Source: an uncultured virus (IMG/VR IMGVR_UViG_3300050505_000328)
Lineage: Duplodnaviria; Heunggongvirae; Uroviricota; Caudoviricetes
Length of the DNA stretch: 20,000 bases
Virus record (IMG/VR): IMGVR_UViG_3300050505_000328
Reading direction: 5' to 3' (one strand)
The position numbers and the translations under genes were made by a program. The number at the start of each line of letters is the position of its first letter. Position 1 is the first letter of the stretch. Of the stretch, positions 2,310 to 19,660 are shown in pieces. The notes under the pieces are model-generated. The model did not search any database and was not told the DNA's origin. It saw only the letters and a program-made list of their open reading frames with translations.

Positions 2310-2836
2310 CCAACAACATCGCCGAAGCCGACACCGAACCCCCGCCCGTCGTGCAGATGGTCGACCTCTGCAAGGAGCGCGACGTGGGCATCGTGACCGT
2401 GTGCGAGGGCCTGCAACCGCCGGGCGAGTGGGGATTCCAACACTTCCTCTGGCGCGTGACCCTGCTCTACAAGGGCCGCTCGTTGAAGACTGACTTCAAG
2501 TGCGGCGTCGCCCACGTGTACCCGCCAAAGAGCCCGCGCGGCGGTCACAAGCCCGACTGCACGAGCGACCACGTCTTCATGGGACGCGAGAACGGTACGA
2601 GACTCTGCGGACCCGGAAAACCCAAGCCGCCCGACGCGGCTGACGTGCTCTCGTGCCTGTGCTCGGACGCGACCAGTGCCGACCGCGTCACGTTCGAGGA
2701 CTGGTGCTCGGACCTCGGCTACGACACGGACAGTCGCAAGGCCGAGAAGATCTATCTCGCGTGCGTCGAGACGAACGCGAAGCTACACGCCTTCCTCGGC
2801 GAGGACTTCGACCTGTTCGCCGGAGCGGAGCACTGA
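2306..2836 (+). CDS. Phage hypothetical protein (FEDWCxxxGYDxDSRKA motif)
   Basis: ATGA overlap. The C-terminal motif resembles one I recall from uncharacterised phage early proteins. Confidence 0.8.
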   Translation: MTNNIAEADTEPPPVVQMVDLCKERDVGIVTVCEGLQPPGEWGFQHFLWRVTLLYKGRSLKTDFKCGVAHVYPPKSPRGGHKPDCTSDHVFMGRENGTRLCGPGKPKPPDAADVLSCLCSDATSADRVTFEDWCSDLGYDTDSRKAEKIYLACVETNAKLHAFLGEDFDLFAGAEH

Positions 2837-2872
2837 CAATCAGACAAGAACCCCAAACACAGGAGAACGGGG

Positions 2873-3331
2873 ATGAACAAGAGACAAGAACTGGAAGCGA
2901 GACTGAAGAAGGCCGATCGTGACCTGGCGGAAGCCGTCATGGTCGTCGCGCGCTGCGCCCAAGAGGTGAGCGACTGCGCCGACAACAAGCGACTCTGCGA
3001 CGCCTTCGCCGTCAACCCCGAGGAGATGGTCGAGCTCCGGAACGCCCTCACGCACTGGCAGGCGTGCACGCAGAAGTTCCTGAAAGTGGTCGACGAGGTC
3101 GGCGAGTTCAACCGCACAGCGCTCGGCACGGCCGTGCACGAGGTCGTGCTCGGTCGGCTCGAACCTCTGCCACTTACCGACAACCTGCACCTCCAAGCAG
3201 CGCGGCGCGCCTGGGCTGCAAACAACGCCGAGGCTGCCCATCACGATTACGGCGAAGTCTTCAACGACACGCTGCTGTCCTTCGACCGGGACCTCGTCGC
3301 GTTCGCCAAGAGCTACGGAGAGAACAAGTGA
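2873..3331 (+). CDS. Helical hypothetical protein
   Basis: AGGAG RBS upstream of the ATG; GTGA overlap with the helicase gene. Confidence 0.8.
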   Translation: MNKRQELEARLKKADRDLAEAVMVVARCAQEVSDCADNKRLCDAFAVNPEEMVELRNALTHWQACTQKFLKVVDEVGEFNRTALGTAVHEVVLGRLEPLPLTDNLHLQAARRAWAANNAEAAHHDYGEVFNDTLLSFDRDLVAFAKSYGENK

Positions 3332-4794
3332 CCCGAGTCTGGAGCGCCTACCAGCAGGCCGTCTTCGACGACGCCCGGAGCGGCGAGGGCCACACCGTGG
3401 TCGAGGCCGTACCCGGGAGCGGGAAGACGACCACGGGCACCGAGATGCTGCGCCACATCCCGAGCGGGCTGTCCGTGTGGATGGGCGCGTTCAACAAGGA
3501 GATCGCCGACGCCCTGCTCGGCCGCGTGCCCCCCGGCACCCGCACCAGCACGTTCCACAGCTTCGCGTTCGGCGCGACGACGCGCGCGCTCGGGCGCGTG
3601 AAGGTCGACCGCGACCGCATGTACCACGTGCTCGACGCCTACTTCGAATCGCGCGGGCTCGAGGTCTCGGGCGAGTGGGCGGGCGCGCTCTGCAAGGCCG
3701 TGAGCCTGGCCAAGGGCACGCTCGCGTGGACCGAGACGGACGTCGACCTCCTGCTCGACACCTACGGCATCGCGGTGCCGTACAAGACCAAGGAGGAGGA
3801 CACGAAACAACTCGAGCGCCAGCACTTCTGCGAGCAGGCGGCGAAACTTCTCCAGCTCGCCAAGGAGGTGAAGGGCGAGGTCGACTTCGACGACATGATC
3901 TGGTTGCCGGTCGCGCTCGACCTGCCGCTGCCGCGCTTCGACCGCGTCGTGGTCGACGAGACTCAGGACCTGAACCCCTGCCAGCTCGCGGTCATGGAGC
4001 GCGCGATCAAGCCGGGCGGGCGCATCACGGCCATCGGTGATCGCCGGCAGAGCATCTACGCCTTCCGCGGCGCGGACGCGCGGGCGATCGACAACATCAT
4101 CGAGAGGTTCAACGCGAAGGTCCTGCCGCTTTCGATCAGCTACCGCTGCCCGCGGCTCGTGGTCGAGCTCGCGAAGACGCTCGTCCCCCAGATCGAAGCC
4201 GCGCCGGGTGCACAGGACGGCGTCGTCGAGGACCGCGAGCCCGAGGAGATGTGGGACGAGCTCCGCTCGGGCGACTTCGTGATCAGCCGCGTGAACGCGC
4301 CGCTCGTGAGCCTGTGCTGGCGCCTGCTCTCCGCGGGCCGGCCCGCCCACATCCAGGGCCGGGACATCGGCACGAAGCTCGCGAGCTTCGTAGAGAAGAG
4401 CGACTGCAAGACCGTCGAGGAGTTCCGCGCGTACGTGGACAAGTGGCACGCGCACGAGTGCCGCCGGCTCACGAGCAAGAAACCTCCGCGCCCGACGGAC
4501 AACGTCGACGACCAGGCCGAGTGCCTGCTCGCGCTGAGCGAGGGCGTGAGAACGATCCGCGACCTGCTCGGCAAGATCGACAAGCTCTTCTCGGACCGCA
4601 AGGGCGAGCCGAAGATCATCCTGACGAGCACGCACAAGGCGAAGGGACTCGAGGCCGACCGCGTGTGGATGCTCGAGGACACGTACATGAAGCGCGACGG
4701 CGTCGAGGAGATCAACCTCAAGTACGTCGCGATTACAAGGAGCAAGCGCGAGCTGTACCTCGTGAATGGGTTCAACAAGTGGAGGCGGTCATGA
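3328..4794 (+). CDS. Superfamily 1 (UvrD/Rep-like) DNA helicase
   Basis: GTG start in a GTGA overlap after GGAG. Motifs: Q motif (YQQAVF), Walker A AVPGSGKTT, Walker B VVDETQD, motif III GDRRQSIYAFRGA, IV SYRCP, V STHKAKGLE, VI YVAITRSK. Confidence 0.93.
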   Translation: MTRVWSAYQQAVFDDARSGEGHTVVEAVPGSGKTTTGTEMLRHIPSGLSVWMGAFNKEIADALLGRVPPGTRTSTFHSFAFGATTRALGRVKVDRDRMYHVLDAYFESRGLEVSGEWAGALCKAVSLAKGTLAWTETDVDLLLDTYGIAVPYKTKEEDTKQLERQHFCEQAAKLLQLAKEVKGEVDFDDMIWLPVALDLPLPRFDRVVVDETQDLNPCQLAVMERAIKPGGRITAIGDRRQSIYAFRGADARAIDNIIERFNAKVLPLSISYRCPRLVVELAKTLVPQIEAAPGAQDGVVEDREPEEMWDELRSGDFVISRVNAPLVSLCWRLLSAGRPAHIQGRDIGTKLASFVEKSDCKTVEEFRAYVDKWHAHECRRLTSKKPPRPTDNVDDQAECLLALSEGVRTIRDLLGKIDKLFSDRKGEPKIILTSTHKAKGLEADRVWMLEDTYMKRDGVEEINLKYVAITRSKRELYLVNGFNKWRRS

Positions 4795-7843: not shown

Positions 7844-8081
7844 CTCGTACGCGACCGACTACCGCTTCATCAAGCGCATGAACCCCGGACTCGTGGGCCT
7901 CACTAGTTCACACGGACAACAACTCTTCACGCGCGGGAAGCTGCGCAAAGCGAAGTCGTGCGCTCTCTGCAAGTTCCCGCTCAAGCCGGGAACACTCGCG
8001 TACATGCCGGTCACCAACGGCTACAACCGCATGCACCGGCTCTGCGTCGCGTGCGTGCAAGGACTGGAAGATGGCCGCTAA
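7833..8081 (+). CDS. Small zinc-finger protein
   Basis: CALC...CVAC pairs. The start is uncertain (TTG 7833 after AAGGA, or ATG 7878). Confidence 0.65.
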   Translation: MAASSYATDYRFIKRMNPGLVGLTSSHGQQLFTRGKLRKAKSCALCKFPLKPGTLAYMPVTNGYNRMHRLCVACVQGLEDGR

Positions 8082-8742
8082 CATCCGCCACAGCTCGGAG
8101 AACTCCGAGTTCATGACGCCGCAGTGGCTCACGGACTGGAGCCACCACGTGATGGGCGGAATCGACCTCGACCCGGCGTCGTCGATTCAAGCGAACCGGA
8201 CCGTCCGCGCGAAGAGGATCTTCACGAAGGCGGACAACGGTCTCTTCCAGGAGTGGCACGGCAACGTCTTCCTGAACCCGCCCGGCGGGTACGTCGACGA
8301 GACCGGCCGCGAGGTTATCTTCAAGACCAAGACCCGTCGCGGGTGCAAGGAGACCGGCGCGTGCGGGCTGCCGCCGGGGCACAAGCACCGCGGCGTCGAG
8401 TCGAGCGCCGTCTTCTGGTGGCACAAGCTCATGCACGAGTTCGAGGCCGGCCGCACCGCGTGCGCGGTGTTCCTCGGCTTCTCCCTCGAGATCCTGCAGA
8501 GCGCGCAGACGTTCGCTGGCAAGCAGCCGCTCGACTTCCCCGGGTCGATCCCGAAGCAGCGCATCCGGTTCGAGACCGAGGACGAGAACGGCGTGCGCGT
8601 GCCCGGCGAGCAGCCCACGCACGGGAACGTGATCGTGCTGGTGTGTCGTAACCCGTCGGACCACATTCACGGACCTGAAGCTAGGCTCTTCCAAGAAGTG
8701 TTCTCGCAGATCGGCTACGTGCACGTGCCGAGGGGGTACTGA
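8071..8742 (+). CDS. Phage DNA N6-adenine methyltransferase-like protein
   Basis: EFMTP...GGIDLDPAS...FTKADNGLFQEWHGNVFLNPPG is the phage Dam-like layout. The catalytic motif reads NPPG instead of NPPY. Confidence 0.8.
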   Translation: MAANIRHSSENSEFMTPQWLTDWSHHVMGGIDLDPASSIQANRTVRAKRIFTKADNGLFQEWHGNVFLNPPGGYVDETGREVIFKTKTRRGCKETGACGLPPGHKHRGVESSAVFWWHKLMHEFEAGRTACAVFLGFSLEILQSAQTFAGKQPLDFPGSIPKQRIRFETEDENGVRVPGEQPTHGNVIVLVCRNPSDHIHGPEARLFQEVFSQIGYVHVPRGY

Positions 8743-9203
8743 TGATCTTCGCCATCCTTCGTTGGCTCCGCTTCTGGCTCTGGTACAGGCCGCTCGCGCG
8801 CCTGCGACGCCAGAGTCTCTACGTCGACTGGAACCGCGGCGTCGACGACGCGCGCGGCACGCGCGAGGACCCGCTGCGCACGCTCGCTGAGCTGAACCGG
8901 CGCACGCGCGGGTTGGTCCTCCGCGGTGACCTCGTGGTCGAGCTCGACGGCGACTTCTCCGACGAGGACCTCGAGCTGAGCCTCACGACCGCGCGAGGTT
9001 CCATGCTGGTCGTGCGCGGCGGCAAGCCGATAGCTCGTCGCCTGTACATGACGAACGTGAAGACGTTCATGCGCCGGTACTTCAAGGGCGCCGTCTCGGC
9101 GCGCGACTACCCGAACCCGCCAGGTGCGGTGGGTGGCGTGCAAGTAGATGCGACGGTCGAGCGCGCCCGGTTCGAGGCGCTGAGGTTCGGGAGGAAAAAA
9201 TGA
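8742..9203 (+). CDS. Hypothetical protein with a DUF1565-like N-terminal motif
   Basis: TGATG overlap. YVDWNRGVDDARGTREDPLRTL resembles the YV...G.D...GT...P..TI cap motif of parallel beta-helix proteins. Confidence 0.6.
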   Translation: MIFAILRWLRFWLWYRPLARLRRQSLYVDWNRGVDDARGTREDPLRTLAELNRRTRGLVLRGDLVVELDGDFSDEDLELSLTTARGSMLVVRGGKPIARRLYMTNVKTFMRRYFKGAVSARDYPNPPGAVGGVQVDATVERARFEALRFGRKK

Positions 9204-10090
9204 GCTACTGCGACCACAGCGGTTGCCTGAACCGACCGTGCATGGTCTGCACGTGCCGGCGGTGCGACAGCGAACCCGAGAACGAGAAATTTTGGTCCTG
9301 CGCCGACCACGAGGATTCTGTCGCCGAAAGGCACCTACGCATCCGCGACCGAGCCGCAGAATTCAGGAGACTGCCCATGAACAAAGACAAGAACGCCTAC
9401 CGCACACCAGCCGACGAGCCCGAGCCCGAGTGGAAAGAGCTGACGACCTTCGAGGTCGAGGTCTCGAGCCTGGGCCAGAGCGACGGCGTCAAGATGTACG
9501 GACGAGTCAAGAGCATCACCAACTTCGAGCATTCCGTCGGCACGCACGACGAGAGAGCCAAGGCGACGCTGCGCCTCGGCCAGCGCGTGCGCGTGATCCT
9601 GCAGGTGCTGGCCGCGCTCGCCCTCGCGGGCTGCTCCAGCTCGAGTAAGAACGACGAACTGTTTGGGACAGGAGGAACGTATGGCGAAGCATCTGTGGGA
9701 GGCTCTGGAGGCGCTGCTGGTGCGGCTGGTGCTGGCACCGGCGGAGTGGCTGGTGCAGGCGCTGCAGGAGCTCCTGCGGGCGGCGGAGGGGCTGGGGTGG
9801 ACGCTGGCCCGGCCTGCACCGTGATCCAGGTCGTGGGCTCCGTCTACGCGAACAACTGCGGGACGCCGACACCGCTCAACGGCGTGGCCGGTGCCTGCGA
9901 CGGCGAGACCGACTGCACGTACGACTTCGCGTTCGCGGTCGACCCCGGCTTCGACCCCAAGCCCGGCTGCCCCAAGGACCTCACGGTGACGTACCTGTGC
10001 GTCGACGGGCTGGGCGAGACGCGCGGGAGCAAGAGCGCGTACACGCCGCCCGACGCGGCGACGACCAAGCTCGAGTGCGGGTGCTACTGA
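9200..10090 (+). CDS. Composite ORF: Cys-rich N-terminus, internal lipobox, Gly/Ala linker, C-terminal SUEL/Gal-lectin-like domain
   Basis: Internal VILQVLAALALAGC-SSSS; Gly/Ala-rich linker; I.V..S.Y..NC...V...CDG...C...DPKPGCPKDLTVTYLC. Alternative starts at ATG 9377 (AGGAG upstream) and GTG 9587. Confidence 0.65.
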   Translation: MSYCDHSGCLNRPCMVCTCRRCDSEPENEKFWSCADHEDSVAERHLRIRDRAAEFRRLPMNKDKNAYRTPADEPEPEWKELTTFEVEVSSLGQSDGVKMYGRVKSITNFEHSVGTHDERAKATLRLGQRVRVILQVLAALALAGCSSSSKNDELFGTGGTYGEASVGGSGGAAGAAGAGTGGVAGAGAAGAPAGGGGAGVDAGPACTVIQVVGSVYANNCGTPTPLNGVAGACDGETDCTYDFAFAVDPGFDPKPGCPKDLTVTYLCVDGLGETRGSKSAYTPPDAATTKLECGCY

Positions 10091-10329
10091 TGGCCAGCGA
10101 GGAAGTCGTCCCCGGCATCGCCGCGCTCAGGTGCTGGCTCGACGACAAGAAGATCAGCAAGCACCGCTTCGCGCTCGACATCGGCCAGGACCCGAGCGAG
10201 TTCGGCAAGCTCCTGAAGAAGGACGCCGCGCGCGTGTCGGTGGAGCTCGCGTTCAAGATCGAGCGCGCCACGGGCGGCGCGGTCCGAGCAGAGATGTTCG
10301 TGCCGGTGGAGAAAGTGAGCACAACATGA
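10090..10329 (+). CDS. Cro/YdaS-like helix-turn-helix regulator
   Basis: TGATG overlap. ISKHRFALDIGQDPSEFGKLL (HTH) followed by LAFKIERATGGAV. Confidence 0.8.
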   Translation: MASEEVVPGIAALRCWLDDKKISKHRFALDIGQDPSEFGKLLKKDAARVSVELAFKIERATGGAVRAEMFVPVEKVSTT

Positions 10330-10700
10330 GAGACCAATTCGTGAAGCTGGGCGACGCCGAGGTGCGGTTCGCCAAGGTCGTCGCGGTCGTCGCCGTCCCG
10401 GGCAGGGAGACGTCGGACGTCTACTTCGAGGGTGGCGACGCGCGCGTGGAGCTCTTGCCGGACGAAGTCTTCGCCAAGCTCGACGCGGCCGAGAAGCGCT
10501 ACCGACAGGAGCGCGTGATCCTCGACTTCGCATGCCGCGCTGAAACGGCGCGAGCGGAGCTCAGCGAGATTCACGCGAGTCGCGACTACGACCCCCTCCA
10601 TGGACTACTTGTGGCAGCCGAACGGGACCTCTCCCGCGCCGTGCGCGAGTACATGGGCTACGCAACCGAGCCGGCTAACGCGCCGAAGGGGGATCCATGA
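10326..10700 (+). CDS. Hypothetical protein
   Basis: ATGA overlaps at both ends; trimmed from ORF 10131..10700. Confidence 0.75.
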   Translation: MRDQFVKLGDAEVRFAKVVAVVAVPGRETSDVYFEGGDARVELLPDEVFAKLDAAEKRYRQERVILDFACRAETARAELSEIHASRDYDPLHGLLVAAERDLSRAVREYMGYATEPANAPKGDP

Positions 10701-10972
10701 ACTACCGCCTGCTAGCAGCCGTGGCCCTCTCCGCCTGCGCCTCGAGCCAGCCGCCTGAGGCGTGCCCCAAGTGCTACTCGATCGACGAGGTCGCGCCGTA
10801 CGAGCCGCCGCGGCGCATGATCATCCTCTGCGACCAGCCGGACGCGGCCGCGCCCGAGCCGGCCCCCGTCGAGGACGAGGACGCGGGCGAGTGCGGCGCG
10901 AGGTGCGTGCCGCTCGTCGAGCGCGAGTACCCGCCCCCGAAGTCCGACGACCCGTTCGCGCGCGTGTTCTGA
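10697..10972 (+). CDS. Small lipoprotein
   Basis: Signal peptide and lipobox MNYRLLAAVALSA-C; Pro/Cys-rich mature part; AAGGGGG upstream. Confidence 0.7.
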   Translation: MNYRLLAAVALSACASSQPPEACPKCYSIDEVAPYEPPRRMIILCDQPDAAAPEPAPVEDEDAGECGARCVPLVEREYPPPKSDDPFARVF

Positions 10973-11410
10973 GCGACGAACCTATCCAGTGCTCAACGAC
11001 AATCCTGACACCGACCCTTCCCCGGCGACGTACCTGGTCGTTCCGGATCAACACGACGTACCTATCTGAATCCCAACCGTCCTAAGCGACGGACCGCACC
11101 CGAAACGAGCCTGGGCGACAATCCGGATCACGCCAATCCTTTGCGACGATCCGCGCACCGGCGCGACATTCCGAACCCAGCCATCGCTTCGCGACCTACC
11201 TGCCAGTACCAGACCCGCGCGACACTCCGGCCCACCTCACGCCGGATCTTTCCGACGCGACAAGCCCTGACTGACTTCGCCAACGCGACGTACCGTACCG
11301 GACTTGGCCAACGCGACAACCCATGCCCCATCGAGCCCCTCCTCTGCGACGTACTGGCCCAGCTCACACCGCAAGTCTGCGCGACTAACCCATCCAAAAC
11401 GCTTCTAACC
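10973..11410. repeat. Upstream degenerate array: RCGAC anchor plus 5-nt NN-NCC modules (putative guide-RNA array)
   Basis: 15 RCGAC anchors end at 10977, 11000, 11029, 11057, 11090, 11119, 11147, 11167, 11195, 11223, 11261, 11289, 11317, 11350, 11385. Spacings are 23, 29, 28, 33, 29, 28, 20, 28, 28, 38, 28, 28, 33, 35 (10 of 14 are 5n+3). Example unit: gtacc-gtacc-ggact-tggcc-aacgc-gac. Confidence 0.9.
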
Positions 11411-11431
11411 CCAAAAAGAAAAGAGCAGAGC

Positions 11432-12145
11432 ATGAGCAAACTAGACGAGAGATTCGACCCGCGACGCCTGTACGACATCTACCGCGTCACGATCGCCGTA
11501 CGCGACCGCGTGTGCGGCGGCATGCCCAAGAACAAGGAGCTCATCAAGACGTGGGTCGAGTCGACGACCGGCTACGCCGACGAGAAGAGCGAGAAGCTCA
11601 CGCAGGAGAACGCCGAGCTCGTCGTGAACGAGGTCGCCGAGAAGTCGTGGATAGGCTTCCCCGAGGACAAGCAGGGCCTGTTCATCCCCGCGCGCAACGT
11701 CAAGGCCATGCTCAAGCAGTCGGCGTCCCTCCTCGGCGTCACCAAGAAGAAGCTCGGCAGCAAGCAGATCCTCGCCGAGGGCATGGAGGTGAAGGCGGTC
11801 AACGGCCACGACCGGATCTACCTCGGCAAGAAGACGATCGACGGGACGGACGAGAGCGCGATCCACGTCATGACCGCGCAGGGCCCGCGCACCGCGCTCC
11901 GGCGCATGGACTACGTGACGAAGCCGACGCTCACGTTCGAGATCTGGGTCCTCGGCACGGCCGCGCTGGAGAAGCGGCACGTCGGCGAGGCGGAGCTCGT
12001 CGAGATCCTCACGCACGCGCAGGAGAACGGTTGCGGCGCGTCCCGCTCGCAGGGCGAGGGCAAGTTCGACGTGGTCGAGTTCGAGAAGATCAGCACGGGC
12101 AAGGGCATCGCGACCGAGCCCGCGGCGAAGAAGGAGAAGGCGTAG
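11432..12145 (+). CDS. Stand-alone Cas7/Csm3-like RAMP protein (candidate Vipr-like effector), 237 aa
   Basis: N-terminal strand YRVTIAVRDRVCGG; LFIPARNVKAMLKQ (compare IPGSSLKGxxR); DYV..P.LTFEI; C-terminal Gly loop GCGASRSQGEGKFDV. ATG 11432 follows a purine-rich leader. Confidence 0.85.
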   Translation: MSKLDERFDPRRLYDIYRVTIAVRDRVCGGMPKNKELIKTWVESTTGYADEKSEKLTQENAELVVNEVAEKSWIGFPEDKQGLFIPARNVKAMLKQSASLLGVTKKKLGSKQILAEGMEVKAVNGHDRIYLGKKTIDGTDESAIHVMTAQGPRTALRRMDYVTKPTLTFEIWVLGTAALEKRHVGEAELVEILTHAQENGCGASRSQGEGKFDVVEFEKISTGKGIATEPAAKKEKA

Positions 12146-12537
12146 CGACGAACCAGGACAATCCCAGCCAATCCGTGCGACGTGCCATGTCGTTCCGCAC
12201 CCAACCACGCGACATGCCCCCACATGCCCGCCCAAGCCACGCCCTAGCCGACGCGACAATCCCAGACATTCCGAACCACGTCCTCGTCGACACGACAATC
12301 CCAGCCAACTCGTGCGACGTGCCTTTCAGCTCCAACCCGTGACCGCAGCGACGACACTGGCCACTGCTGCGCGCCGCGACTGACCTTACCATGCCGCCCC
12401 ATCGCGACAGACCCCGCCATGCCAAGATCCCGAACGCCCCATCGCGACGATCCGCACCCAAACTTCGCGACGTACCTTGCCACAACTATTCTCAGCGACA
12501 AGCCGGTACCGGCCGAGCCGAGCCAACGCGACCAACC
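12145..12537. repeat. Downstream degenerate array: RCGAC anchor plus 5-nt NN-NCC modules (putative guide-RNA array)
   Basis: 13 RCGAC anchors end at 12149, 12181, 12213, 12257, 12296, 12318, 12352, 12380, 12408, 12448, 12471, 12499, 12532. Spacings are 32, 32, 44, 39, 22, 34, 28, 28, 40, 23, 28, 33. Example unit: tgacc-ttacc-atgcc-gcccc-atcgc-gac. Confidence 0.9.
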
Positions 12538-12550
12538 AAGGAGACGACCG

Positions 12551-12940
12551 ATGGAAGAGACCGACGAGGACATGATCAAGGAGTGGGTGGCCGCCTGCGC
12601 CATCCACCTAGCCGACACGATCGAGCAACTGATCGTCGTGTCGTACGCGCACATCGAGGCGCTGCCCGAGGACGAGCAGGCGGAGTTCAAGCGCAGGCTC
12701 CTGAACGCGCTCGAGTGCAGGGTCCTCGACCTGGCGTCGCGCGTCACCGTGGCGATGCTCGCCGAGAACGGCGAAACGATCGGGGACGTGATCGGTCACT
12801 TCACCGACCACGCCGTGGCGGCCCACAACTTCCAGCTCCGCGAGATGAACCCGCTCAACCGGATCCTCAACTCGGTGTTCGAGCACGTCGAGCGCGTGGC
12901 CACGGACCGGGCCGCGAAGCGCCACAGCGAGGGGAACTGA
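12551..12940 (+). CDS. Helical hypothetical protein
   Basis: AAGGAG at 12538-12543 before ATG 12551; trimmed from ORF 12419..12940. Confidence 0.8.
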   Translation: MEETDEDMIKEWVAACAIHLADTIEQLIVVSYAHIEALPEDEQAEFKRRLLNALECRVLDLASRVTVAMLAENGETIGDVIGHFTDHAVAAHNFQLREMNPLNRILNSVFEHVERVATDRAAKRHSEGN

Positions 12941-12942
12941 CA

Positions 12943-13500
12943 ATGGCATTGCCCGAAAGAATCCAGACCGAGCAGGACGTCGAGGACGTCTACGAGCACT
13001 TCGAGGTCGAGGCGAACCGCTACGTGCAGATGCGCCTGGCTCGAGACGAGCTCAACGACTTTCAAGGAAGATTCTTCATCAGTCCTGGTGACCTGCGATT
13101 CGCCTCCGACGACGAGGTCCGCGAGCTCAAGCGGTACCTGAACGACGGTGATCGAGACATCTGGTTCGCGCGTGGAGCTCTAAACCAGGTCCAGAGCCTG
13201 GCGAAGATCGTCGGGCTGACGCGAGACAGTCTGGACCCGATCAAAAAGAGCCTCGTCATCAATGAGCACATCCGCTGCTCGCTGAGCGACCTCGTCCTCT
13301 CGCTGCGAATGTTCAAGCCTGCGGTCGAGGCCCTGACTCTGTGGCGCCGCAACCACAACGTGCTCGCGAAGGTGTTCGAGATCCACACCATGCAGTGGCT
13401 GCACGAGCCGAACGAGCAACTCGACGGGCAGAAACCGGAAGAGCTGCTGAACGACGACGCCGGACTGACTCGCCTCGAGTCCCTGCTGGGGATCCGATGA
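12943..13500 (+). CDS. Protein with C-terminal Xre/MbcA/ParS (DUF2384-type) antitoxin domain
   Basis: C-terminus VLAKVFE...QWLHEPNEQLDGQKPEELLNDDAGLTRLESLLG matches W-L-x-x-P-N-x-x-L-x-G-x-x-P-x-x-L-L...G; GAGGGG RBS. Confidence 0.7.
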   Translation: MALPERIQTEQDVEDVYEHFEVEANRYVQMRLARDELNDFQGRFFISPGDLRFASDDEVRELKRYLNDGDRDIWFARGALNQVQSLAKIVGLTRDSLDPIKKSLVINEHIRCSLSDLVLSLRMFKPAVEALTLWRRNHNVLAKVFEIHTMQWLHEPNEQLDGQKPEELLNDDAGLTRLESLLGIR

Positions 13501-13676
13501 TCCCCTGGAACGACATGGACGAGCGCGAGCGCGCGGTCTGGAGCGCGGCCTACGGAGCCGCGTTCATGACGTACCAATACGAGAGGGAAGAAGCTCAGTT
13601 GGAAGACTCGGTCGAGATGGCCGACCGAGCCGTGCACGCGCTGCGCGAGGCGACGAAGAAGGATCCGTATCGATGA
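13497..13676 (+). CDS. Small hypothetical protein
   Basis: ATGA overlaps at both ends. Confidence 0.65.
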   Translation: MIPWNDMDERERAVWSAAYGAAFMTYQYEREEAQLEDSVEMADRAVHALREATKKDPYR

Positions 13677-13876
13677 ACGACGAAGCACTAGAGAAGGACT
13701 GGACCGTCGGTGAGGACGGGCGGTTCAACAGCTCGGCCGAGTTCGAGCGCCTGGTCGGCGTCGTGGAGCAGCTACTGCGCGACCATCGCCTCGGTGACAG
13801 CGTCCGGATGCGAGCCGGGCTCATCATCGCGCAGCTCACGCACGAGCACGGGCTGGTGCCGAGGAGTTCGAAGTGA
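13673..13876 (+). CDS. Small hypothetical protein
   Basis: ATGA overlap; AAGGA upstream. Confidence 0.7.
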   Translation: MNDEALEKDWTVGEDGRFNSSAEFERLVGVVEQLLRDHRLGDSVRMRAGLIIAQLTHEHGLVPRSSK

Positions 13877-14304
13877 GACCCCTGCTCGTCGGCGAGGCGA
13901 ACCCGTACCAGTCCGACCCGCGCCTCGCGCAGCGCTACGCGCTCTACCCGAACCCGCCGCGCTGCGCCGGCTGGAATCTCTGCCACACGATCATGCAGCT
14001 CGACGAGGGCGAGTACCTGCGACGTTTCGACCGCGTGAACCTGTGCGACGGGAAGTGGGCGATGAAGGCCGCACGAGAGCGAGCGTCGGCGTACCGAGTC
14101 GCTGACCTGCCGGAGCGGATCATCCTGTTCGGCGCGAAGGTCTGCAAAGCGTTCGACTTCGAGTACAGGCCGTTCACGCGGCCCAGCCACCGGTACGACC
14201 GCTACGTCATCCTCCCCCACCCGTCCGGGCTCTCGCGCGCGTGGAACGAGCCGGGCGCGCACGAGCGGGCGCGGGCGGTGCTGAAGGAAGCGGGGGTGTT
14301 GTGA
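13873..14304 (+). CDS. Uracil-DNA glycosylase superfamily protein (minimal)
   Basis: Motif A-like LLVGEANP, central VNLC, IILFGAKV, motif B LPHPSG; GAGGAG RBS; GTGA overlap. Confidence 0.8.
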   Translation: MRPLLVGEANPYQSDPRLAQRYALYPNPPRCAGWNLCHTIMQLDEGEYLRRFDRVNLCDGKWAMKAARERASAYRVADLPERIILFGAKVCKAFDFEYRPFTRPSHRYDRYVILPHPSGLSRAWNEPGAHERARAVLKEAGVL

Positions 14305-16289: not shown

Positions 16290-16500
16290 CCAACACCTGG
16301 CACCTGTTGGGGGGTGTTGGGTGTTGGGCAACGGAGGGGTTATTTTTCTAAAAATAATTCCGAAAACCTTCCGGAGTTATTTTTCAAAAAATAATTATCC
16401 CAACAGACCAACACCCACCAACACCCGGAGGTGTTTGGCAAAAAAAAATTCTAAGTAGTCGTAATCGTTGATGTCCCTTACATGACCAACACCCCAACAC
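16290..16500. other. Putative replication origin (iterons plus AT-rich palindromes)
   Basis: CCAACAS heptamers on + (16290, 16400, 16408, 16418, 16486, 16494) and - (16304, 16314, 16321). They flank two 21-nt AT-rich direct repeats (16339-16359, 16376-16396) upstream of the primase-helicase gene. Confidence 0.7.
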
Positions 16501-16764
16501 GTGATCTAAGTAAATAGAGGGGTAGAAGTGTAACGGAATGACCATTGGTATATGGCTTCGGTGGAAGATTTTTGAAGACGAGGCTGACAGATCGCGCGCG
16601 CCTGCGCGCATGTACCCGCGCGCGTACACGCGCGTACGCGAGGCGACCGTGGCACCCCGCACTGTCACGGTCGCGACTGCGACGAATGTGGTCTTGACGC
16701 CGACACCGGACTTCTGGCAAAAGCGAAGGTCCGTCGCCGTGAACCCGTAGTCCCGATCCCCAAG

Positions 16765-16900: not shown

Positions 16901-19660
16901 GTGAAGGTCTCCAACTTCGACCACGCGAAGGATAACGACCCGAAACAGGGCGATATCACTTGGGAATACTTCGCGGCCGAGCTCGGACCCCACGATTATC
17001 GCTACCAGGTCAAGAAATTCGTCCCCTGCTTCAGCCCGGCCGAGTTCGACCTCAGCGCCCCGAACGTCGTTCGCGACGACGCCTTCGTCGTCCGGCTCTG
17101 GATGTTCGTCCTCGACGTCGACGAGGTGAGCGAGCAGACGTACCTCGCGCTCGTCGCCTTCGTGCGCCAGCTCGGGCTGGCGGCCGTCGTGTACTCCACG
17201 TGGTCGCACGCGGAGTCGCTCGCCAAGACCGGCCTGTACAAGTTCCGGGTCGTCATCCCGCTCGACCAGCCGGTGGACGCGGCGCGCTGGCGCGAGTTCT
17301 GGGCTAAGGCGAATCACGGCCTCTTCGGGGGCGTCGGCGACCTCAAGTGCAAGAACGAGAGCCGGCTCTACTTCGGCCCCTTCGCCCCCGCCGGCACCGA
17401 GGCGGTGAACTTCTACTACGCGCTCCCCGGCAACGCGCTCGCGACCGAGTCCGTGTTCGCCCTGCCCCTGCCCGAGGGCGTGCGCGACACGCGGGCGACC
17501 GACGGCGAGGAGCGGAAGACCAAGGACAGCGAGGCCGTCGCCATGCTCGCCGCCGTGTGGCCGAGCCAGCGCCGGCACGAGGCGCACCTCGCGCTAGCGG
17601 GCGGACTGCTCTCAAGCGGCGTAACCGACGAGCGCGCGGTCGAGTTCCTGTGCGCGGTCGCGCGCCAGCACGACGGCAGCGAAGAGGAGCGCGACAAGCG
17701 CGAGAGCGCCGTGCAGCACACGCGCGACCAGCTCGACGCGAACGAGAAGATCACGGGCTGGACCACGCTCGCGGGCATCGTCGGCTACGACGTCGTCGAG
17801 AAGGTCCGCGCCCTCGTCGAGCGCGCCCCGGACATCTCACTCGAGCAGCTCACGCGCTACTCCAAGGAACTGAAGAAGAGCAAGTTCGACAACAAGCGCG
17901 AGCTGGGCGACGCGCTCGCGAAGGTCTGCGAGCGGCGCCCTTTCCCCGAGCCGCTCGCGCTGAAGCTCGCGGCGGAGCTCGGCACGCGGTACGTCGATTA
18001 CAACGCTAAGTCCATCGCGGCGCTCTTCGACGAGAGCCTGCGCGTCATGGTCGCCGATGGTGAGGACGTGACCGTCGAGCAGGTCGAGGCGCGCATCAAG
18101 CTGAAGCAGGACGAGGTCCGGCAGGAGCGCGACGAGCGGCGGAAGAAAGAACAGCGGCGCGAGCAGGAGGTCGAGCACGACAAGGCGAGCCGCATCCGCG
18201 AGTCGTTTAACAACGGCCGCTCGCACCCGTACACGGTCGAGGAGCTGCAGCGGTTCGCTCCGGTCATCAGCACGGGGCACCAGTGGATCCTGCAGAAGGA
18301 CCGCGCGTTCTACTTCTACCACTACGGCAAGCACCGCGGCCCGTACACGGAGGCGGAGGCGCACAACGCCGCGCTGCGCGAGCTGGCGCCGGCATCGAGC
18401 GCGGGCGTCGAGCTCTACAAGGTCACGAAGGACGGCGCCGAGTTCAAGAGCCTGCGCCAGCTCGTCGCCGAGTACGGCACCGTCGCCGACGAGCTCATCC
18501 TCGACATGCGCGCGCAGACCACGACGTACGACCCGAGCGTGCGGACGATCATCGAGGCGCCGTGCCCGCTCCGCCCGATCGCGCCGGTCTACCACGCCGA
18601 CATCGACGAGTGGCTCTACCACCTCGCGGGGCCGGAGTACTGGTACGACCTGAAGACGTGGCTCGCGATCCTGCCGCGGCTCGACATCGTGCGCGTCGCG
18701 CTCTTCCTGACCGGCAAGAAGAGCCTCGGCAAGAGCCTGCTCGCGCTCGGCTGCGCGCGGCTCTGGACGACGCGCGGGCCGACCTCGCTCGACGCCGCGT
18801 TCGGCCCGTTCAACGACATCGTCGCGAGCTGCCCGCTCTGCTTCGCTGACGAGCAACTACCGAAGGACTTCCGCGGCTACACGATGAACCCGCAGCTCCG
18901 CCACCACATCCAGGCGACCGAGCGCATGTACAAGCGGAAGTTCCTGCCGAACGGCAAGCTCATCGGCGTCACGCCGACGATCGTAGCCGCGCACGACCCG
19001 TCGATCCTGCGCACGCCCGAGGACCTCTCGAATAACGAGATCGAGGGCATCATGGAGCGCTACTTCCACATCGCGGTGCGCGACGCGGCGGGGGACTACC
19101 TGGCGTGGCTCCGCCCGACGACGTTCGAGCGCGGCTGGGTCGAGGGCGACAAGATCGCAGAGTTCGTGATGTGGCTGTACTACAACCACCGGCACGAGTC
19201 GCAGGGCCGCTTCTACATCAACCGCCCCGACGTCGAGAACACGCGCTGGCTCGCGACCTCGAGCGGGGCGCGCAGTGCGGTGCTGCGGTGGCTCTGCAGC
19301 TACCTCTCGGACCGCCGCAAGTTCGAGGGCGACCCGAACACCAAGATGTACGTGCGCGTTTATAAGGGCCAACTGCTCGTCAACATCTCTGGGCTCCTCG
19401 AATTCTGGGACAAGTACATCGGCAACGAGAAGTGCCCGCCCTCGGGGAAGCTCGCGCAGACCATCGGCGAACTCGCGTACCCGAAGCAGCGCATCCAGCT
19501 CCTGAACGGGAAAAGAATCCCGATGAACTACCGCGTGATCGTTCCCGACAACATCTACGCCTGGGCAAAGAACAGCGACCTGATCACGGAAGAGGAGATC
19601 GCGAAGCAGCTCTCCACTGATTCGATCGAAACCAACATTGGTCTCACGAAAACGGCTTGA
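16901..19660 (+). CDS. AEP-type primase fused to a PriCT-like region and a C-terminal SF3/D5-like helicase domain
   Basis: AEP-like motifs FVLDVD, YSTWSH, KFRVVIPL, DLKCKNESRLYF; helical RHEAHLALAGGLLSSG; Walker A-like LTGKKSLGKS and Walker B-like CFADE. Confidence 0.85.
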   Translation: MKVSNFDHAKDNDPKQGDITWEYFAAELGPHDYRYQVKKFVPCFSPAEFDLSAPNVVRDDAFVVRLWMFVLDVDEVSEQTYLALVAFVRQLGLAAVVYSTWSHAESLAKTGLYKFRVVIPLDQPVDAARWREFWAKANHGLFGGVGDLKCKNESRLYFGPFAPAGTEAVNFYYALPGNALATESVFALPLPEGVRDTRATDGEERKTKDSEAVAMLAAVWPSQRRHEAHLALAGGLLSSGVTDERAVEFLCAVARQHDGSEEERDKRESAVQHTRDQLDANEKITGWTTLAGIVGYDVVEKVRALVERAPDISLEQLTRYSKELKKSKFDNKRELGDALAKVCERRPFPEPLALKLAAELGTRYVDYNAKSIAALFDESLRVMVADGEDVTVEQVEARIKLKQDEVRQERDERRKKEQRREQEVEHDKASRIRESFNNGRSHPYTVEELQRFAPVISTGHQWILQKDRAFYFYHYGKHRGPYTEAEAHNAALRELAPASSAGVELYKVTKDGAEFKSLRQLVAEYGTVADELILDMRAQTTTYDPSVRTIIEAPCPLRPIAPVYHADIDEWLYHLAGPEYWYDLKTWLAILPRLDIVRVALFLTGKKSLGKSLLALGCARLWTTRGPTSLDAAFGPFNDIVASCPLCFADEQLPKDFRGYTMNPQLRHHIQATERMYKRKFLPNGKLIGVTPTIVAAHDPSILRTPEDLSNNEIEGIMERYFHIAVRDAAGDYLAWLRPTTFERGWVEGDKIAEFVMWLYYNHRHESQGRFYINRPDVENTRWLATSSGARSAVLRWLCSYLSDRRKFEGDPNTKMYVRVYKGQLLVNISGLLEFWDKYIGNEKCPPSGKLAQTIGELAYPKQRIQLLNGKRIPMNYRVIVPDNIYAWAKNSDLITEEEIAKQLSTDSIETNIGLTKTA

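Follow-up and report, generated by a model that had tools for sequence, protein, structure and literature searches.

Cytosine-phased pentamer arrays around a Vipr-like RAMP gene in an uncultured virus: a probable divergent member of the VIPR family

On either side of a small gene in the genome of an uncultured soil virus of the Caudoviricetes (IMG/VR record IMGVR_UViG_3300050505_000328) lie two non-coding stretches composed of short units that share a phase and differ in their letters. The question raised by this locus is what kind of information such units carry and what reads them. For the first of the two stretches it had been predicted, from the letters alone, that unit lengths go in quantised steps of one protein subunit, that the information sits in the variable positions of each pentamer, and that the array is not a tandem repeat in decay. 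The window analysed here is the whole stretch of 20,000 nucleotides that contains the locus; the parent record is one contig of 97,101 bp with 65.9% GC. The viral location is confirmed by this 97-kb virus record and by the relatives of the locus, which were found in IMG/VR contigs and in Microcystis phage Mae-JY09.

The two arrays and the genes around them

The features described in this section are all on the plus strand. The upstream ORF (10697-10972) encodes 91 aa with a lipoprotein-like N-terminus and has a GC3 of 0.96; it is regarded as context, its membership in the system being putative. Its stop codon abuts array 1 (10973-11431), the first GCGAC of which stands immediately 3' of the TGA. 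The 459 non-coding nucleotides between this stop codon and the start of gene X are rich in C and poor in G (0.41 and 0.21, respectively) and comprise 16 CGAC-delimited units of the form (NNN-Y-C)n followed by NNNGC-GAC, plus a trailing unit which has no anchor and merges into the A-rich ribosome-binding region of gene X. The limits that had been predicted for the array, 10973 to 11410, are real, although the array continues to 11431, where the start codon of the next gene is reached.

Gene X (11432-12145) encodes a Vipr-like RAMP of 237 aa with a single RRM, a predicted Cas7 fold and the G-loop ENGCGASRSQGEGKF. It is followed on its 3' side by array 2 (12146-12550; 405 nt), which has the same build as array 1. 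A CGAC overlaps the TAG of gene X, and the array extends as far as the ribosome-binding site of the gene that comes next, its last anchor being followed by CAACCAAGGAGACGACCG and then by the ATG. This next gene, ORF Y (12551-12940; 129 aa, GC3 0.95), belongs to no family. It occupies the place in which a vap accessory gene would be expected and is not conserved in the related loci. A mechanical listing had given a single ORF at 12391-13500, which was rejected as one gene since its first 184 codons are an artefact (GC3 0.43). The stretch 12391-12942 is an Arg-rich, out-of-frame read over array 2 and gene Y and not a gene start, and the actual genes inside the listed ORF are 12551-12940 and 12943-13500. 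The second of these, two genes past the Vipr-like gene X, encodes 185 aa, and its C-terminus matches the toxin-binding domain of Xre/MbcA/ParS antitoxins (PF09722, E 2e-6).

Units of array 1 were defined by cutting 10973-11410 after every CGAC, which gave lengths of 23, 15, 14, 28, 33, 29, 28, 20, 28, 28, 33, 5, 28, 28, 33 and 35 nt. Ten of these 16 units have a length of 5n+3 (binomial p = 2.5e-4 against one in five), and when the array was cut at GCGAC only the figure was 7 of 12 (p = 0.004). The quantised lengths of the original prediction therefore stand, even if its own count of 10 of 14 varies with the way in which pieces of 5-15 nt are merged. Counted from the start of each unit, position 5 of the pentamers is C in 59 of 70, as compared with 33.8 +/- 3.5 in 5000 shuffles of the unit interiors, the highest of which reached 48; for C at position 4 the figure is 41 of 70, against a shuffle mean of 27.8. 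A separate count of the same array found C in 63 of 74 at position 5 and in 43 of 76 at position 4. The check that had been proposed, an entropy for each pentamer position, showed values far from uniform, with 1.93-1.99 bits for the first three positions, 1.66 for the fourth and 0.84 for the fifth. A sharp line divides fixed from variable positions, as had been supposed, but the variable ones are three (N1-N3) and not the two (NN) originally named. It was also confirmed that units differ while the phase persists: no identical pair occurs among the units of at least 18 nt in the genome of the window.

In array 2 the C phase is equally clear (60 of 66; shuffles 30.5 +/- 3.5). Its length quantisation is weaker, with 5 of 15 units being 5n+3 and several 5n+2 or 5n+4. 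Over the 97,101-bp genome the phased pattern is present at arrays 1 and 2 only. A plain Fourier scan over the whole array gives no 5-nt peak, because every unit resets the phase by 3 nt, and pentamer counts within units were used in place of Fourier periodicity. Tandem Repeats Finder reported nothing within the arrays. There are 15 pairs of near-duplicate units, too few to show which of the variable positions is free.

Gene X and its association with the arrays

Comparison was extended to 17 further loci (12 from IMG/VR, one from a MAG and four metagenomic), one of the 17 being identical to the window. Every locus with a homolog of X of at least 50% identity has arrays upstream, downstream or on both sides, on the sense strand of X. 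In Microcystis phage Mae-JY09, for which no mention was found in the literature searched, a homolog with 30% identity is followed by a CGAC-punctuated, C-phased array. Of 11 whole viral contigs, 10 have their clustered units next to X, on the strand of X, and nowhere else; the eleventh is a double locus, described below, whose two units failed the neighbour filter. A reverse search was also made, in which a DNA pattern of one perfect 28-nt unit, blind to any protein, was run against IMG/VR. It returned 21 stretches. An X-family ORF (hmmsearch E 6e-14 or better) accompanies, on the same strand, all 16 of those that have four or more units; the five stretches without X contain one or two units each, about as many as chance would give. 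In about 25 viral contigs the association of array and gene is valid in both directions, the arrays being always on the sense strand of the gene, and the arrays are a real, non-random and functionally linked feature.

The relatives show the same build. Lengths of 5n+3 were counted in 153 of 208 units across 15 loci and in 184 of 255 distinct units. The modules among these 184 units mostly have five steps (59 units), six (49), four (24) or seven (19). In 600 inner pentamers positions 1-3 have 1.95-2.00 bits, position 4 is C at 0.72 and T at 0.16, and position 5 is C at 0.95, a value inflated by the filter, which demanded at least 70% C there. CGAC is universal across the loci and the 1-5 bases that precede it are clade-specific. 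A longer and well-conserved anchor of about 12 nt, ending TTCTCGAC or TTTTCGAC, was seen at L011:3950-4110, and anchors appear to co-vary with the protein clade.

The double locus is an IMG/VR contig (L014:1500-4000, the same as L063) in which all parts lie head to tail on one strand. A canonical 191-aa Vipr (2173-2748) with GGC/NN arrays comes first, then a homolog of X (2986-3648) with a CC array, and then a further GG array. In a metagenomic locus (L019:825-3307) there are two X paralogs, at about 937-1647 and 2483-3307, with 38 CC-type units between and around them.

Gene X belongs to no family in Pfam or PHROG. A weak match to the Csm4 model of PADLOC was obtained (E 2e-5, residues 160-221), and some of the 182 metagenomic homologs of X are labelled Csm4 or RAMP by their source. 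The AlphaFold2 (AF2) model of the protein, with a pLDDT of 84.6, has a predicted RRM core, helices at 35-62, a beta-hairpin at 138-163 and the G-loop at 200-211, and its best Foldseek matches are Cas7 of type VII, Csm3 and Cmr4 (E about 1e-7, probability 1.0). On this model X is predicted to be a small stand-alone RAMP of the Cas7 type placed outside a CRISPR-Cas locus, and other cas-like genes, including cas1 and cas2, were absent among the proteins scanned. The family is large, as 1431 cluster representatives were recovered at E 1e-3 or better in a profile search of 1.84 billion representatives.

A remote relation to Vipr is supported by profile comparison. The broad X profile (A3) was aligned with the canonical Vipr profile (A2) by hhalign at 92.1% (E 6.3e-7, 150 columns), with helix-1 and the G-loop in register; as a control, A2 reached 96.3% against the Vipr of Escherichia phage SUSP1. 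The narrow X profile (A1) scored 4.3% only against A2, and the two scores of X profiles against the single SUSP1 Vipr sequence, 0.7% and 11.7%, are no match. Sequence profiles thus place X as a remote member of the Vipr superfamily. According to the text of the structural preprint, D177 and W178 of SUSP1 Vipr read two guanines and R179 stacks on a pyrimidine (10.64898/2026.04.26.720927). In the profile alignment these residues fall on A203, S/D204 and R205 of X, and of the three base contacts only the arginine is kept, R205 being near-invariant.

Comparison with VIPR and the strand of the guide RNA

VIPR (Viral Interference Programmable Repeat) is described in the 2026 preprint texts as a lone phage RAMP, Vipr, flanked by YNNGG arrays (10.64898/2026.04.26.720920, 10.64898/2026.04.26.720927). 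The same texts state that the NN bases read double-stranded DNA with every third target base skipped, that the published vrRNA has 9-16 repeats and a conserved structured 3' tail, and that an accessory vap gene is "typically" next to vipr (10.64898/2026.04.26.720920, 10.64898/2026.04.26.720927). One Vipr protomer is reported per 5-nt repeat, clamping GGY (10.64898/2026.04.26.720927), and these texts treat the system as a gapped code based on G, from which CRISPR backbones may have descended. The Methods of the VIPR preprint give the repeat variants NNNGG, YNNNG and NNNNG for some types, all motifs named there containing G, and the legend of its Fig. S18 refers to "staggered arrays" of back-to-back units. 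Further Vipr-like motifs, GAC/NN, CAC/NN, WGT/NN and TGH/NN, are listed in the text of another paper (10.64898/2026.10.21.760802).

The likeness between the X loci and type II VIPR, the type of phage SUSP1, is considerable. Both consist of a phage-borne, lone and small RAMP gene flanked by long intergenic arrays, with a strict 5-nt repeat of fixed and hypervariable positions, arrays on the strand of the gene, neither cas1/cas2 nor CRISPR repeats, and remotely homologous proteins. In the SUSP1 locus (KT454805.2) vipr lies at 28474-29061 on the minus strand and the YNNGG runs are on that same strand. There are also differences. The arrays of X have a fixed Y-C at the 3' side of each sense-strand step and three variable positions, whereas VIPR has GGY and two. 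X modules are mostly of 4-7 steps and end in a CGAC anchor of 5-8 nt, whereas those of VIPR have 9-16 and a pseudoknotted 3' tail of tens of nucleotides. The G-loop residues D177 and W178 are not kept in X. Moreover, no conserved co-directional vap gene was found at 14 X loci, and apart from X no plus-strand ORF of at least 50 aa is common to three or more of the 14 (blastp E 1e-5). Runs of GG on the sense strand occur in 47 of 80 canonical loci, and a CC run in the double locus only; conversely, CC runs occur in 10 of the 14 X loci and GG in the double locus only. In departing from GGY/NN while keeping 5-nt repeats X is like the other divergent VIPR types, and its units, one ending where the next begins, are back-to-back in the same manner as the staggered arrays.

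From this comparison it is probable that the arrays and gene X form an RNA-guided system of the VIPR family, as a divergent and non-canonical clade. The running text of the VIPR papers, to which this comparison is confined among text, figures and data tables, mentions neither a repeat based on CC or YC nor a CGAC anchor or modules of 5n+3 nt. What differs from that text is the other fixed bases, the three free positions per step and the very short anchor-delimited modules. The X clade may, however, already be one of the preprint's seven types, seen from the opposite strand, with NNNGG and the staggered arrays as candidates.

The locus was also compared with CRISPR. In Class 1 CRISPR one RAMP subunit covers one fixed step of the guide, and the same logic may hold for X, the predicted fold of which is that of the Cas7/Csm3/Cmr4 filament on crRNA. 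The step of X is however 5 nt with sequence-specific fixed bases, whereas that of CRISPR is 6 nt without sequence demand, and the locus lacks long repeats, Cas6, Cas5, a large subunit and adaptation genes. The sole repeat in the arrays is an anchor of 4-8 nt, and neither the direct repeats of about 23-50 nt nor the non-periodic spacers and cas genes of a CRISPR array are found. The intervening "spacers" are themselves 5-nt periodic and thus are not raw captured foreign DNA.

By analogy with Vipr, the arrays would be transcribed along with the surrounding plus-strand genes, and X protomers would bind the RNA, one per 5-nt step, each holding the fixed Y-C dinucleotide and leaving variable bases exposed for the recognition of target DNA. 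The CGAC anchor, together with the few clade-specific bases before it, would shift the phase by 3 nt and so delimit modules of mostly 4-7 steps, and the 5n+3 lengths are proposed to arise because of this shift. The likely use would be the silencing of competing mobile elements. That unit length goes in steps of one subunit, as originally proposed, is a reasonable reading, since X is related to Vipr, whose published structures hold one protomer per 5-nt repeat (10.64898/2026.04.26.720927). The idea of subunit-quantised, position-coded information was largely right in form.

Which strand provides the guide is decisive for what the code is. A sense-strand, cytosine-coded guide RNA is somewhat favoured, and several features of layout and homology point to it. 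The canonical G-type arrays of SUSP1 and of the 47 loci mentioned above are in sense orientation, and in the double locus the canonical arrays and those of X are all on one strand. The arrays abut the stop codons and ribosome-binding sites of co-directional genes, and sense RNA would be much less structured than antisense RNA (-110 versus -184 kcal/mol), folding energy on either strand being equal to that of shuffles. In X, moreover, the guanine-reading residues are changed and the pyrimidine-stacking arginine is retained. These arguments are indirect, and the pattern could equally follow from one inversion, in an ancestor, that affected only the gene. A guide from the antisense strand, reading G-R-NNN and close to the published NNNGG variant, is rather unlikely by the same analysis.

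The best surviving alternative is that this is the same system with its guide RNAs made from the minus strand, as 5'-GUC-(G-R-NNN)n with GUCGC at one end, and hence an ordinary NNNGG-type VIPR antisense to its vipr gene and operon. The reverse complement indeed reads G (0.95), R (0.88) and three free bases, which agrees with the published variants NNNGG, YNNNG and NNNNG and with the presence of G in every motif named in the preprint text. The anchor would then stand at the 3' end of every module, including the one adjoining gene X, as does the 3' tail of the canonical vrRNA, and in 46 of 76 pentamers a pyrimidine would follow the GG, which faintly recalls GGY. Such guides would however require that, at every locus and on either side of X, transcription run antisense to a cluster of co-directional genes (the orientation of the neighbouring genes having been judged by GC3, which is rough), and their promoters would have to sit in coding sequence or in a spacer of about 45 nt. 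The antisense arrangement occurs in none of the 47 repeat-bearing canonical loci, and in the double locus the antisense unit would fall between sense G-type arrays that are 30 nt apart. The loss of the guanine-contacting residues in X tells against it as well, and this explanation as a whole is considered unlikely. If the RNA were from the minus strand, the finding would shrink to a new representative of a VIPR type already described, unusual in its antisense layout.

The sense-strand reading has a difficulty of its own. A C-rich and G-poor untranslated RNA is a good loading site for Rho, and to have such a sense RNA upstream of gene X is awkward and counts against that reading. A scan of positions 9000-14000 gave no promoter and one terminator-like site, which lies in gene X on the minus strand and is fewer than in shuffles. 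Rfam, at E up to 1, gave no matches in or around the arrays, and a look-up of RNA sequencing runs returned none that contains the locus.

If the guide is the sense strand, the locus might represent a second and orthogonal VIPR code, in which each protomer clamps a pyrimidine-cytosine pair, three bases per step are free and a CGAC phase-shifter takes the place of a folded tail. This full reading is advanced tentatively, its chance being judged a little below even. Were it true, the 5-nt step may specify a full 3-nt target step, and the two codes of the double locus would let two guide sets work without cross-loading. Confirmation would also mean that the base-clamping pocket of Vipr proteins is evolvable, that two codes could operate in parallel and not interfere with each other, a useful property for programmable repression, and that a phase shift in the RNA can set guide length.

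Targets were sought with 128 units (at least 28 nt, 5n+3, from all loci) decoded by 11 rules, taking N1N2, N2N3 or N1N2N3 with 0-3 skipped bases in single units and adjacent pairs. The search space was 0.44 Mb, made up of the own genome and related viral contigs on both strands with the arrays masked. Minimum mismatches were equal to those of pentamer-order shuffles, and the nine adjacent unit pairs of the window's genome, decoded by four rules with gaps of 0-6, gave no match in the same 0.44 Mb. The double-stranded DNA site predicted by the N1N2-plus-one-skip rule is identical for either strand. No wobble-like GC asymmetry was found among N1-N3 (z = 1.2).

Turnover of units and the remaining explanations

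The content of the arrays changes quickly. In the loci L009 and L013, X is identical at 207 of 210 residues and the flanks are 91-93% identical, and the arrays can be aligned over 73 nt only; unit content is hypervariable between near-identical phages. L005 and L004 differ by the loss of one block of units between short internal repeats. Units are replaced and lost far faster than gene X changes. This fast turnover is expected of guide-like cargo and not of an array of binding sites.

Contigs from four DNA runs matched the window as fragments only. One of low depth, from another rhizosphere run, matches both sides of 12346-12348 in array 2 and has 66 other letters between. In another contig the start of gene X is retained and the sequence upstream is unlike that of the window. 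These two divergent contigs hint weakly at array polymorphism, 12346-12348 being the place of a possible unit insertion.

The arrays might instead act as DNA, as phased binding sites for X or another protein, for example in an origin, a partition or packaging site or a silencing nucleation site, with no guide RNA involved. The strict tie of the arrays to one protein family would suit such a role, as would the primase-helicase and the UvrD-like helicase encoded within the same window. Iterons and similar sites follow the helical repeat of 10.5 bp, with which a 5-nt period and a 3-nt reset do not fit. Binding sites are as a rule conserved, but each of these units is unique and the units are quickly replaced, and the fold predicted for X is of the RNA-binding Cas7 type, its relative Vipr binding RNA of 5-nt repeats. 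This possibility is considered very improbable.

A TRAP-like or Rho-binding leader and a decaying tandem repeat, the latter already discounted in the original prediction, were both rejected, since the arrays are tied exclusively to a RAMP gene and their units turn over, which speaks against either. The idea that the C arrays serve as sponges for canonical G-type vrRNAs was likewise rejected, no excess of complementarity to 164 canonical repeat runs having been found.

Elsewhere in the window, the plus-strand genes listed at 3064-4794, 8071-8742 and 16901-19660 encode, respectively, a UvrD-like helicase (PHROG 1967, E 2e-90), a DNA methyltransferase (PHROG 111) and a primase-helicase-like protein of 919 aa. 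The intergenic region before the primase gene (16300-16640) contains short perfect direct repeats, namely GGGTGTT in 2.4 copies, ACCAACACCC in 2 and CGCGCGTACA in 1.9.
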